Assembly: GCF_000284455.1 (NCBI RefSeq)
Contig: NC_017039.1
Location: 510,001-542,000, forward strand
Source: Synechocystis sp. PCC 6803 substr. PCC-P
GTDB taxonomy: Bacteria; Cyanobacteriota; Cyanobacteriia; Cyanobacteriales; Microcystaceae
DNA length: 32,000 bases
Reading direction: 5' to 3'
Shown: positions 2,613 through 4,948 of the stretch, piece after piece
Numbering within the stretch: position 1 is the first letter of the stretch
How the letters are laid out: each line of letters begins with the position of its first letter
Made by a program: the position numbers and the translations under genes
The notes under the pieces: model-generated
The model's database searches: none
The model's input: the letters and a program-made list of their open reading frames with translations, nothing else
What the model was told of the DNA's origin: nothing

Positions 2613-2640
2613 CTTCTAAAATCCTGAACTAAGATATAGG

Positions 2641-2664
2641 GGTGGGCTAGGCTCACCTTTTTTA
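2641..2664 (+). terminator. Probable intrinsic terminator of chlH
   Basis: ggtgggc (2641-2647) pairs with gctcacc (2651-2657) in a 7-bp stem that includes one G-U wobble. The loop is tag. A tttttt run (2658-2663) follows, 29 nt after the chlH stop. Confidence 0.6.
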
Positions 2665-2716
2665 TTAGCTTAATAGCCTAACTTTAGATTCGTATAGCAA
2701 GTAAGCAGTAATTCAT

Positions 2717-4735
2717 ATGGAATTAAAAAGTGTTAAATTAAACAAATTTAAAAGATTTGAAAGTGCTGAGCTTAAAACTAATGGTAAGCTTATTGCTCTA
2801 ATTGGAGCCAATGAAAGTGGAAAGACATCTATTCTAGAAGCAATACAATGTTTGGATGATGATAAAGCTTTCTCCGACGTGTTTTTTACTCGTGACCTTT
2901 CCGAACCTGAGCAAGATGAAGTCATTATCGAAGCTACATATATGTTAAGTGAAGAGGACAATGAATCAATCCTCTTTTATGATCCATTACGCGTGGCAAA
3001 GAAATTTTTGATTCTGAAAAGAGCTAATGGAAAACGGAATTTTAAAATTGAGCCTGATATTATATTTAATGACCAATATCGAAAAGAAATAATTAATAAA
3101 ACATTACAGTTTATTGAAAATATATTTTATGAAGATCAAGACTTTGATAACGAACTATTAAATAATATAGTTACTGAAGGCAGAGAAATTATTTTGCAAT
3201 TGCAGACGTCTTTAAATGATAAACGAAATAAGGATCGACACAATGGAGAAAAATGGCAAGTTCCACACGAAGTTCCTAACGTACTGGTGATGGAGGATCA
3301 AAAAAAGTTAGAGTTATGGATTGAGCTTATAGAAGAATTTTTGGACTTTAATCAAGGAACAAACAATGAAAAACACTTAAAAGAATTGTCAGACTCAGCA
3401 AAAAAACTATTAAAATATGAGAACTCATCACTGATAAATGGATCAATCGAGATAATTTACAAGCGACGACCTAAAGCATTACTATTTGATGATGAATCCA
3501 GAAAAATCCCGTCTTTTTTCTCAATAATCACACAAAATACAAATAAAGAAAAAATTGTAGCCAAGCCGGATAAAGCACTAGCAAATTTATTGAAATTAGC
3601 CAAGTTAGATTTGAATGAGTTATTTAAATCTCTTGGAAATTTACAGAAATCACAAATGTTGTTGAATCGAGCAAATCAAACAATAGTAGATTTTTTCAAT
3701 AGCAAATGGAGTCAGTCAAATTCTCAATATCTAAAACTTTACTTGCATGGTAACACATTAAGAATCTCTATAGAGACTAATAAAGGTAGTAGTTTTAATA
3801 TAGACGAAAGAAGTCAAGGCTTCAGGCAATTTGTTGCCCTAACTTGTTTTTTAGAAGTTGAGCATTTAGATGTTTTACCAATTCTACTCATAGATGAAGC
3901 AGAGCTACACTTACACTATGATGCTCAGGTTGATTTAATGAAAGTTTTGGAAAAGCAAAGTATTGCAAAAAAGGTAATTTATACGACTCACTCTATTGGT
4001 TGTTTGCCGGAAGATTTAGGAGTAGGGATCAAACTCGTAGAGACTCAAAGAGAACAATTGGAAAGAAGCATAATTGAAAACAATTTTTGGATTAAATGGA
4101 AGAAAAAAGAATTAGGAATGACTCCTATCCTATTTGGTTTGGGTGCTGCACAAATGTCATATATTGCTATTCGTCCTGCCTTATTTGGTGAAGGAATATC
4201 AGAAGTAATCATATTACCAACCATATTCAGGCAAATTATAAAAAAAGAGAATTTAGGATTTCAAATAATTGGTGGTTTATCTGAGACCAATCAGTACGCA
4301 TTACTTGATGGTCAAGCACCTAAAGTTGTTTATGTAACTGATTATGATAGAGCAGGTGATGAATTCAAAAAAAAGTTAGAAGAGAATGGCATAAATCCAG
4401 AATTTATCAAGCAACTACCAGGAGATGACAACGCATCAGTTTTAGAAGATTTTATTTGTCTTGATCTTTATATTCGTGCAGTTAATGAAGAGTTAAATCA
4501 ACGGAACAAAAATCCACCAAATATTAAATCTGATGATTTTGGAGAAATTAATCGTCCAAAAAATCTAAAGAAATGGTGTCAATTAAAAGGTCTTAGTGAA
4601 CCAACAAAAGTCAATGTACTTTATCGCTTAATAGACTATGCTTATAGTGATGAGCAATCCCAAATTCTTGATTTTAAATATATCGAAAAATTTAAAGAAC
4701 TTTATGAATCAATCATAACAATACTGGAAAGATAA
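2717..4735 (+). CDS. ABC/SMC-type ATPase fused to a C-terminal TOPRIM-like nuclease domain (OLD-family-like, standalone)
   Basis: 672-aa ORF with the following motifs:
- Walker A GANESGKTS, with K36 at nt 2822-2824
- a ~330-aa K/E/N-rich helical insert
- ABC-signature-like ERSQGFRQF
- Walker B ILLIDEAELHLH (D393/E394, nt 3893-3898)
- H-loop YTTHS
- LFGEGISEV (E492, nt 4190-4192) and VYVTDYDRAGD (D542-x-D544, nt 4340-4348), which match the TOPRIM Glu and DxD pattern

The gene is strongly AT-rich relative to its flanks. The function is inferred from motifs only. Confidence 0.65.
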   Translation: MELKSVKLNKFKRFESAELKTNGKLIALIGANESGKTSILEAIQCLDDDKAFSDVFFTRDLSEPEQDEVIIEATYMLSEEDNESILFYDPLRVAKKFLILKRANGKRNFKIEPDIIFNDQYRKEIINKTLQFIENIFYEDQDFDNELLNNIVTEGREIILQLQTSLNDKRNKDRHNGEKWQVPHEVPNVLVMEDQKKLELWIELIEEFLDFNQGTNNEKHLKELSDSAKKLLKYENSSLINGSIEIIYKRRPKALLFDDESRKIPSFFSIITQNTNKEKIVAKPDKALANLLKLAKLDLNELFKSLGNLQKSQMLLNRANQTIVDFFNSKWSQSNSQYLKLYLHGNTLRISIETNKGSSFNIDERSQGFRQFVALTCFLEVEHLDVLPILLIDEAELHLHYDAQVDLMKVLEKQSIAKKVIYTTHSIGCLPEDLGVGIKLVETQREQLERSIIENNFWIKWKKKELGMTPILFGLGAAQMSYIAIRPALFGEGISEVIILPTIFRQIIKKENLGFQIIGGLSETNQYALLDGQAPKVVYVTDYDRAGDEFKKKLEENGINPEFIKQLPGDDNASVLEDFICLDLYIRAVNEELNQRNKNPPNIKSDDFGEINRPKNLKKWCQLKGLSEPTKVNVLYRLIDYAYSDEQSQILDFKYIEKFKELYESIITILER

Positions 4736-4948
4736 TCATATGTATGTATCTCTTCCACTTAATCAAGTATTAAATTTTAAATATCGGACTTTTATTATTC
4801 AAGAAGAAAGATGATTTACAGCACTGATCCCTGGCTTACCCAGTTGTATGACTCAGGGAGAAATGATAGAAGAAAATGAATATAAACAGTCATTGTCAAA
4901 GGCGATCGCCAAATCAACGAGAAAAAGTGATTAAAAGAAGTTATTCTT

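Follow-up and report, generated by a model that had tools for sequence, protein, structure and literature searches.

Class 1 of the OLD family is exemplified by P2 Old, the OLD protein of Thermus scotoductus (Ts OLD, 6P74), Vc OLD from Vibrio cholerae, and YbjD/OldB from E. coli. Membership in this class is defined by a standalone gene in a variable neighbourhood (PMC10568477, PMC12796447), and a length of about 500-600 aa has served as its cut-off (PMC12392090, after Dot et al. 2023). Protection against phage has been described for P2 Old, Vc OLD, and YbjD (PMC12445682, PMC12392090, PMC13261556). P2 Old cleaves tRNA (PMC12445682), and YbjD acts without its TOPRIM domain (PMC13261556). A role outside defence has been described for Cran1, an archaeal OLD protein (PMC12796447). 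Structurally, Ts OLD has a dimerisation domain inserted within its ATPase (PMC7049728). The class 2 protein GajA partners with GajB in the Gabija system (PMC6755086), and fused AriA-AriB variants of PARIS, the class 4 system, also exist (PMC12392090).

Here, we describe slr1056 of Synechocystis sp. PCC 6803, which lies in the 32-kb stretch of genomic DNA that was analysed (the window, 32,000 nucleotides). Most probably, slr1056 encodes a standalone, horizontally acquired OLD-family nuclease composed of an ATPase, a TOPRIM domain, and a helical domain, which likely serves as a single-gene defence system. A sequence-only reading of the same DNA had located a 672-aa ORF in an AT-rich segment, and this ORF was recovered at 2717..4735 on the forward strand with an ATG start codon and a stop codon at 4733-4735. 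Its product is identical over the full sequence to BAA17041.1, named 'ATP-dependent endonuclease' in RefSeq, and the start codon agrees with the N-termini of the homologs in the alignment. Table 1 lists the features of the locus.

Table 1. Features of the slr1056 locus, with positions given in the window.
Feature	Position	Strand	Basis
Left border and intergenic region	2613..2716	+	chlH terminator-like hairpin, AT-rich leader
Full gene slr1056, predicted OLD-family ATPase-TOPRIM nuclease	2717..4735	+	Pfam, AF2 model, Foldseek
ABC ATPase lobe I, aa 1-112	2717..3052	+	Walker A GANESGKT, K36 at nt 2822-2824
Mostly helical insertion, aa 113-335	3053..3721	+	AF2 model helices
ABC ATPase lobe II, aa 336-455	3722..4081	+	Signature, Walker B, H-loop
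Predicted TOPRIM core, aa 486-581	4172..4459	+	E492-G493, E496, D542-x-D544, G547, E577-D578
C-terminal helical domain, aa 582-672	4460..4732	+	Conserved basic R613, K631; class-2-OLD-like
Right-hand spacer	4736..4948	.	Non-coding, 213 bp, HIP1 copy at 4902-4909

The composition of the segment deviates sharply from that of its surroundings. The G+C content of 2613-4948 is 0.314, as compared with 0.478 for the window, and the lowest-GC stretch of 2336 bp within the 32 kb falls at 2601-4936. The gene itself has a GC of 0.311 and a GC3 of 0.227, against 0.503 +/- 0.033 (z = -5.8) and 0.531 +/- 0.070 (z = -4.4), respectively, in the 16 other ORFs of the window. At the left border, GC drops from 0.52 to 0.34 across 2400-2850. 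The sequence-only reading had proposed such a contrast from four 60-nt lines, and its counts of 34, 10, 21, and 34 G+C at 1, 3061, 3961, and 5341 are exact. In PCC 6803, the neighbours of slr1056 are chlH and a gene for a DUF2157 membrane protein. The chlH gene is incomplete in the window and stops at 2612. The terminator that had been proposed to border the segment corresponds to a terminator-like hairpin with a T-run at 2638-2660, past the chlH stop. The promoter and ribosome-binding site of slr1056 should sit in the short AT-rich leader that follows; a promoter search of the left border (2613..2716) gave no signal exceeding chance. The right-hand spacer extends to the convergent DUF2157 gene, whose stop codon is at 4949. 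The island at 2613-4948 holds no second ORF of note, and the Rfam search of 1500-6500 returned no match at E <= 1.

The N-terminal 455 residues of Slr1056 are an ABC/SMC-type ATPase. Lobe I, which resembles the N-termini of SMC_N, RecF, and Rad50 and contains beta strands in the model, has G30, N32, E33, G35, K36, and S/T38 invariant in 43 sequences. Lobe II carries the signature R365-S366-Q367-G368, the Walker B motif D393-E394, H400, and the H-loop residue H425, and S366, G368, D393, E394, H400, and H425 are likewise invariant among 43 homologs. Both AAA_15 (8.9e-18) and AAA_21 (4.3e-14) pass the Pfam cut-offs, and the PADLOC ATPase models Old, GajA, AriA, and PtuA match Slr1056 with E = 1e-11 to 1e-17. 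The profile of the family recovered PtuA (1e-11), AriA (6e-7), Ts OLD (6e-5), and GajA (1.5e-3) from the PDB, with the best PtuA and AriA matches falling on lobe II. The Foldseek matches of the full-length AF2 model (pLDDT 85, pTM 0.82) include Ts OLD 6p74 (5e-10, 630 columns) and GajA, which align over 630-770 columns, and the ATPase fold resembles the heads of SMC, Rad50, PtuA, and OLD proteins. Because the SMC, Rad50, and PtuA heads dominate this full-length search, it is uninformative on the nuclease domain. A library of viral folds returned only generic ABC ATPases of giant viruses and phages, and P2 Old was not among the top 50.

The two lobes are separated by an insertion with helices at 120-139, 146-172, 192-211, 218-236, 239-250, and 309-330 in the AF2 model. 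Within the family, this region varies the most, and the alignment is gappy and weakly conserved there. The earlier figure of a ~330-aa helical insert is the distance from K36 to S366 and takes in part of the beta-rich lobe at 1-112; a mostly helical insert does exist, but it spans residues ~113-335. By analogy with the domain inserted in the Ts OLD ATPase (PMC7049728), these ~220 residues are probably a dimerisation or coiled-coil-like domain.

The C-terminal region is predicted to carry an OLD-type TOPRIM domain, which is supported by modelling. The model of residues 466-672 (pLDDT 90) shows the TOPRIM layout beta1-alpha-beta2-alpha-beta3-alpha-beta4, and both models place helices after it at 582-596, 613-623, 631-643, and 653-671. 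In Foldseek, the top five PDB matches of this model are all C-terminal regions of OLD proteins (6nk8, 6njw, 6njx, 6njv) with a probability of 0.90-1.00 and a TM of 0.41-0.54, followed by 6p74 and then by the TOPRIM domains of T7 primase and DnaG. [quoted passage not shown] This comparison, which had been suggested together with the OLD-like ATPase-TOPRIM architecture itself, thus found the TOPRIM similarity.

The residues expected of such a nuclease are conserved. Among the 43 homologs, E492 and D542 are found in 43/43 and D544 in 42/43, and position 496 is D or E in 43/43; E577 and D578 are both present in 43/43, and the positions of R613 and K631 are basic in 43/43. Together with the ATPase motifs, all of the residues singled out by the sequence-only reading (K36, SQG, D393/E394, the H-loop, E492, and D542/D544) are therefore present and invariant or nearly so. 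The spacing from E492 to E496 (+4) is the same as that from E400 to E404 in Bp OLD, and the spacing from E577 to K631 (+54) is the same as that from E508 to K562 (PMC6755086). The equivalence of E577/D578, R613, and K631 with class 2 OLD residues is based on spacing.

Profile searches detect this domain in relatives of Slr1056. The Pfam scores of Slr1056 itself are sub-threshold, with E = 0.02 for Toprim_2, 0.057 for Toprim, and 0.043 for PF20469 (OLD-like TOPRIM) on aa 488-544. In contrast, PF20469 matches 16/43 full-length family members and 14/17 C-terminal fragments of relatives, with E as low as 9.4e-6. Against the PDB, two profiles dominated by full-length sequences matched ATPase parts only, and a C-terminal-only profile found no OLD structure but chance matches with E > 0.1. 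The TOPRIM question was settled only by searching with the predicted fold and by scanning relatives with Pfam, and the assignment accordingly rests on the predicted structure, with its modest TM-scores, and transitive Pfam matches.

Homologs of Slr1056 form a family of 946 representative clusters (~950 at 50% identity) with a patchy distribution over many bacterial phyla, cyanobacteria included, and the haloarchaea. The best-scoring members are mostly full-length proteins of ~640 aa, within a full-length range of ~620-680 aa. When the neighbouring ORFs at 81 homolog loci (PCC 6803 included) were clustered, no cluster occurred in more than 7/81, and the commonest one, present at 7/81 loci, is an integrase. 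Pfam identified integrases, HsdR, MmeI-type R-M enzymes, TrwC relaxase, Fic, and Uma2 as recurrent neighbours. No UvrD-like helicase or HNH protein recurs beside the 81 loci. Neither the island nor its immediate surroundings contain a reverse transcriptase ORF, none was found among the Pfam-identified recurrent neighbour clusters, and no separate TOPRIM partner lies beside slr1056. The claim that a helicase, reverse transcriptase, or TOPRIM partner is missing from the vicinity was thus upheld in PCC 6803, and no recurrent partner emerged at the 81 loci. A tblastn search of sequenced phages and PLSDB plasmids found no homolog.

Comparison with related genomes supports that the PCC 6803 lineage gained slr1056 horizontally as a single-gene cassette, as had been proposed. 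The gene is absent beside the DUF2157-mazG pair in PCC 6714 and in a related contig (L089) with flanking DNA 92.7% identical to PCC 6803. On the DUF2157-mazG side, DNA similarity begins at 4949 for PCC 6714 and at 4948 for L089. The nearest homolog anywhere in a search of 5.8 billion proteins is 42% identical to Slr1056. The anomalous composition, the absence from PCC 6714 and L089, and this distant nearest homolog together argue for acquisition. The insertion site, with chlH on one side and the DUF2157-mazG pair on the other, is a synteny breakpoint. The window contains no tRNA, the island contains no integrase, and its borders show no meaningful flanking repeats, att-like repeat, or target-site duplication.

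Two other signs of foreign origin were considered and rejected. The island had been described as free of HIP1 copies, with the first one to its right at 4902. No copy occurs at 2613-4901, but the one at 4902 lies inside 2613-4948 rather than to the right of it. With 2.1 copies expected, the absence is non-significant (P(0) = 0.13), and two other stretches of the window, 3.8 and 3.2 kb long, also lack HIP1. Nor is low GC by itself proof of transfer, as the histidine-kinase gene at 8389-10389 is likewise poor in GC and is nevertheless conserved in a relative.

The most likely function of slr1056 would be defence against phages or mobile elements by one gene. Alternatively, Slr1056 could be a factor for DNA maintenance, repair, or chromatin, comparable to the archaeal Cran1 or to RecF/Rad50-type ATPases. 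Such a role would agree with the position of slr1056 between housekeeping genes in PCC 6803, where it is part of no defence island and adjoins no defence or mobility gene, and with the similarity of its ATPase to RecF, Rad50, and SMC heads. OLD proteins with a non-defence role or a dispensable TOPRIM domain are also known (PMC12796447, PMC13261556). We nevertheless consider this role improbable, as the gene is strain-specific and extreme in composition, and its family is patchy and, at 97% of 77 loci, GC-poorer than the surrounding DNA. The genes that recur beside family members encode integrases, R-M enzymes, and a relaxase, and the nuclease residues are fully conserved.

We also considered a fused PARIS-type (class 4) protein, in which an AriA-like ATPase would act as a scaffold and, upon encountering a phage anti-restriction protein, set free or activate a TOPRIM domain of the AriB type that cleaves host tRNA. 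The top PADLOC match is indeed AriA (2.2e-17), with a score of 6.4e-11 for the fused AriAB model. The profile of the ATPase is closer to PtuA and AriA than to Ts OLD and GajA, the family keeps the canonical S-x-G signature unlike Ts OLD (PMC7049728), and fused variants provide a precedent (PMC12392090). However, the AriA matches have coordinates near-identical to those of Pfam AAA_15 and AAA_21 (373 vs 374 and 304 vs 304 positions) and are therefore non-specific, and the best stretch of the AriAB match is limited to residues 1-46. Moreover, DUF4435, the AriB-type domain, was found in 0/17 C-terminal fragments at E <= 1, and the C-terminal fold matches are class 2 and class 1 OLD proteins and primases, with no AriB chain among the top 50. 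A PARIS-type mechanism is thus hard to credit. [quoted passage not shown]

For a standalone defence nuclease, the following mechanism can be envisaged. The ATPase dimer of Slr1056 would sense, or be licensed by, an infection cue and might govern a TOPRIM active site with two metals. The conservation and the spacing of the residues are consistent with the two-metal arrangement of Bp OLD (PMC6755086). By this comparison, E492, D542, and D544 are the putative ligands of metal A and E496, E577, and D578 those of metal B, and either K631 or R613 of the helical domain may stabilise the transition state. The site would then cleave nucleic acid. By analogy, the candidate substrates are DNA, which could be nicked or degraded as by Ts OLD, Vc OLD, and GajA, or tRNA, as for P2 Old and AriB.

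Although Synechocystis PCC 6803 serves as the principal model among cyanobacteria, its defences other than CRISPR and R-M are barely studied. Our literature search found no paper on the locus tag 'slr1056', and cyanobacterial defence surveys yielded nothing on it. This agrees with the sequence-only reading, which held that single-gene systems of this type are not characterised in cyanobacteria; elsewhere, Vc OLD, YbjD, and P2 Old have been studied. A single-gene OLD in a tractable host offers a handle on how standalone OLD proteins are activated and whether they target DNA or tRNA. In addition, slr1056 could influence transformation, conjugation, and phage work in the PCC 6803 chassis. The find is genuine yet fairly ordinary: it adds only incrementally to practice and concepts, RefSeq already carries the family assignment, and work on other class 1 OLDs is available.

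Compared with the known systems, Slr1056 fits the class 1 definition by context, as the gene stands alone, lacks a dedicated partner, and has neighbours that vary from locus to locus. This part of the proposed class-1-like assignment stands, but the protein itself departs from the class: its 672 aa, like the ~620-680 aa of the family, exceed the range of about 500-600 aa. In Ts OLD, no helical domain follows the TOPRIM domain and the signature is degenerate (PMC7049728), whereas Slr1056 has such a domain and a canonical S-x-G signature. Its Walker B motif is D-E, whereas Ts OLD has E276 replacing the Walker B aspartate. The structural alignment with Ts OLD spans 630 columns, but sequence similarity is restricted to the P-loop region. 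No adjacent reverse transcriptase or msr/msd ncRNA links slr1056 to the class 3 retron effectors. Both modules also occur in PARIS, and similarity to AriA is detectable in the ATPase half, but the TOPRIM domain is not AriB/DUF4435-like, and slr1056 is a single gene as opposed to a two-gene operon. PtuA of Septu and retron I-A gives the best sequence match to a solved structure (E = 1e-11), covering the half with the signature, Walker B, and H-loop; however, PtuA lacks a TOPRIM domain and pairs with the HNH nuclease PtuB, and no PtuB-like or RT gene adjoins slr1056.

The closest likeness of the nuclease half is to class 2. Bp and Xcc OLD (6NK8/6NJV-X) are the best fold matches to the C-terminal region, with a probability of 1.0 over the TOPRIM-plus-helical part but a TM of only 0.41-0.54, and the spacing of acidic and basic residues is shared with E400/E404 and E508/K562 of Bp OLD (PMC6755086). 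At the sequence level, GajA of Bacillus cereus shows weak similarity, which does not extend beyond the ATPase, and no GajB (UvrD/PcrA/Rep-like helicase) lies downstream of the gene in PCC 6803 or at the 80 homolog loci. With a class 2-type C-terminal region and no GajB, the slr1056 clade of ~645-aa proteins blurs the line between class 1 and class 2, which bears on the classification and detection of OLD proteins. Tentatively, the family might even constitute a distinct, unnamed OLD subclass that combines a PtuA/AriA-like ATPase with a canonical signature and a class-2-type nuclease without GajB, although we would not favour this at present. If so, its activation mode, and possibly its substrate, would differ from those of both the Ts/P2-type class 1 proteins and Gabija.

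The sole gene of the AT-rich island between chlH and the convergent DUF2157-mazG pair, slr1056 (BAA17041.1), is probably a standalone OLD-family nuclease that was horizontally acquired and acts in defence, although the defence role is far less certain than the family assignment and the acquisition. The sequence-only reading had interpreted the gene as a standalone, horizontally acquired OLD-type ATPase-TOPRIM gene, and the predicted fold, the partner-free loci and the absence from relatives support this interpretation. The same 672-aa protein is encoded without any change by AP012277, CP129343, and numerous further assemblies of PCC 6803. 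RefSeq already names the protein 'ATP-dependent endonuclease', and JGI names relatives 'predicted ATP-dependent endonuclease of OLD family'.

Residues 1-455 of slr1056 form an ABC/SMC-type ATPase (Pfam AAA_15, 8.9e-18; AAA_21, 4.3e-14) with weaker similarity to RecF, Rad50, SMC, PtuA, and AriA. Aligning 43 full-length homologs (31-42% identical) showed that K36, S366, G368, D393, E394, H400, and H425 are invariant. The AlphaFold model of the protein (pLDDT 85, pTM 0.82) was used to delimit the parts of the ATPase listed in the table, and it also shows a flexible linker.

Features of the island, of slr1056 and of the rest of the window
Feature	Location	Strand	Remark
Terminator-like hairpin	2638-2660		3' of chlH stop codon
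slr1056 ORF	2717-4735	+	672 aa
Beta-rich ATPase lobe	aa 1-112		AlphaFold model
Mostly helical insertion in ATPase	about aa 113-335		AlphaFold model
Second ATPase lobe	aa 336-455		AlphaFold model
PAS/histidine-kinase gene	8389-10389	-	666 aa
Two overlapping short ORFs	11020-11459	-	83 and 93 aa
Very large ORF	14448-19697	+	1749 aa
Very large ORF	23188-27576	+	1462 aa

For the C-terminal half, the window protein by itself gave only sub-threshold Pfam TOPRIM matches (Toprim_2, 0.02; Toprim, 0.057), and sequence profiles reached none of the solved OLD C-terminal regions. The OLD-like TOPRIM family PF20469 matched 16 of the 43 full-length relatives (best E 1.9e-6) and 14 of 17 C-terminal fragments of relatives (best E 9.4e-6). 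We also modelled residues 466-672 separately (pLDDT 90.3) and searched the fold against the PDB. The top five matches were all OLD C-terminal regions, from Burkholderia (6nk8) and Xanthomonas (6njw, 6njx, 6njv), with probabilities of 0.90-1.00, about 222 aligned columns and TM up to 0.54, followed by Thermus OLD (6p74) and then by the TOPRIMs of T7 primase and DnaG. Among the 43 aligned sequences, E492, D542, and E577-D578 are conserved in all and D544 in 42, while position 496 is always acidic and positions 613 and 631 are always basic. The structure search, a check proposed together with the claim of an OLD-like TOPRIM, thus agreed with that claim, as did the conserved residues. The PF20469 matches in relatives, the predicted fold and the residue conservation establish, at the level of sequence and model, a C-terminal TOPRIM in slr1056. 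The spacing of E492/E496 mirrors that of E400/E404 in Bp OLD, and E577-to-K631 (+54) mirrors E508-to-K562 in the same enzyme (PMC6755086); a residue-by-residue equivalence with Bp OLD is what we would infer from these positions.

The base composition sets the island apart. The earlier G+C counts on four 60-nt lines (34, 10, 21, and 34 of 60) were reproduced exactly on recounting, and the sharply different composition described for the island was borne out, with 31.4% G+C in 2613-4948 against 47.8% window-wide. Compared with the other 16 large ORFs of the window, slr1056 has a GC of 0.311 (z = -5.8; mean 0.503 +/- 0.033) and a GC3 of 0.227 (z = -4.4; mean 0.531 +/- 0.070), and 2601-4936 is the minimum-GC 2.3-kb stretch anywhere in the 32 kb. 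HIP1 sites lie at 948 and 4902. The copy reported at 4902 is therefore present, but it falls within the island interval rather than to its right. Because of this, and because a site-free 2.3-kb stretch has P = 0.13 at the density of the window, which holds two other HIP1-free gaps of >3 kb, the HIP1 argument for the island is weak.

The PAS/histidine-kinase gene is likewise GC-poor (GC 0.393, GC3 0.348), and its region, 8551-10886, is the second-lowest-GC 2.3-kb stretch in the window. This gene is kept at 92.7% DNA identity in contig L089 of a related Synechocystis; therefore, low GC alone is no proof of recent transfer in PCC 6803. Between the histidine-kinase and MlaD-like genes, the two short ORFs match AP012277 genes with DDE_Tnp_1 and DUF4096 Pfam matches and resemble an IS transposase that has been split or frameshifted. 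For the 1749-aa ORF, PCC 6803 records show TPS (two-partner secretion) and CHAT protease-like domains.

The mazG-DUF2157 pair is kept in PCC 6714 (CP007542, locus L085) and in the L089 relative (DUF2157 protein 95% identical), followed by ycf4 in the former, by feoB in the latter, and by slr1056 plus chlH in PCC 6803. Neither an OLD gene nor chlH was found beside the pair in PCC 6714 or L089. The proposed comparison beside mazG accordingly found the segment absent from both, DNA homology to the window ending exactly at 4949 (PCC 6714) and 4948 (L089). The closest non-identical homolog among 5.8 billion proteins is 42% identical. From the absence in relatives, the end of homology and this distant nearest homolog, it follows that slr1056 is confined to the PCC 6803 lineage, where it occupies a synteny breakpoint. 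Three different neighbours at the DUF2157 3' end in three Synechocystis lineages suggest a hotspot for rearrangements, not a site of clean insertion. Sequenced phages and PLSDB plasmids were searched for slr1056 homologs, and none was found.

Apart from slr1056, the island has no notable ORF, and no tRNA, Rfam RNA, or flanking repeats were found. For neighbourhood comparison, 80 homolog loci were taken from reference genomes, spanning cyanobacteria, Acidobacteriota, Planctomycetota, Actinomycetota, Proteobacteria, Bacteroidota, Chloroflexota, and two haloarchaea. No neighbour family occurs in more than 7 of the 81 loci (window included); the recurrent ones comprise phage-type integrases, type I HsdR, MmeI-type R-M, TrwC relaxase, Fic, and Uma2. 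Recurrent neighbours of this kind place the homologs in mobile-element or defence-island surroundings, with no dedicated partner. In 97% of 77 loci, the homolog has a lower GC than the DNA flanking it, the mean difference being 8.5 points. The haloarchaeal members (L053, Halobium salinum; L072, Saliphagus sp.) are full-length and ~30% identical, implying inter-domain transfer of this OLD-like bacterial family.

A cyanobacterial subgroup of ~560-575 aa (P0005, P0010, P0017, P0025, and others from Pseudanabaena and Calothrix; loci L009, L012-L016) is the one whose ATPase part most resembles that of slr1056 (43-44% identity). BLASTP covers only ~64% of the slr1056 query, implying a shorter or more divergent C-terminal region; downstream of the Pseudanabaena gene lies one for a Uma2-family putative endonuclease. 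A profile of the C-terminal module matched 946 representative clusters in a search of 1.84 billion proteins. In most of the best 150, the module lies at the C-terminus of a protein of ~620-680 aa; shorter hits resemble ORFs that have been truncated. The 90%-identity cluster of slr1056 (P0001, P0242-P0245) has as its representative a truncated 589-aa protein that comes from a read-assembly; the complete 672-aa protein occurs in 268 contigs, and representatives-only searches under-report coverage (82%). The clade to which slr1056 belongs looks compact and self-contained.

The OLD enzymes that have been characterised suggest by analogy how slr1056 would work: its ATPase, probably dimerised via the helical insert, would control a two-metal TOPRIM nuclease and so bring about restriction of phages or mobile DNA, or abortive infection. 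The substrate may be DNA, which Ts OLD, Bp OLD, Vc OLD, and GajA cut or nick (PMC7049728, PMC6755086, PMC12392090), or tRNA, which P2 Old and AriB cleave (PMC12445682, PMC12409363); the YbjD phenotype is independent of its TOPRIM (PMC13261556).

If the OLD classes are defined by gene context, slr1056 falls into class 1, whose members are 'standalone genes within variable gene neighbourhoods' (PMC12796447, PMC10568477). However, its length lies outside the 500-600 aa of that class, and, unlike Ts OLD, it carries a helical domain C-terminal to the TOPRIM. The C-terminal region is like that of class 2, but GajB, the defining partner, is missing. Classes 3 and 4 were rejected because there is neither a reverse transcriptase or ncRNA nor an AriB/DUF4435-type domain. 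The ATPase retains the canonical signature motif; by sequence, PtuA and AriA resemble it more closely than Ts OLD or GajA do. The clade may deserve to be set apart as an OLD subclass of its own, but this is less likely than not. Recent work has characterised standalone OLDs from other bacteria, and slr1056 is a further, uncharacterised member of this kind with some variant features.
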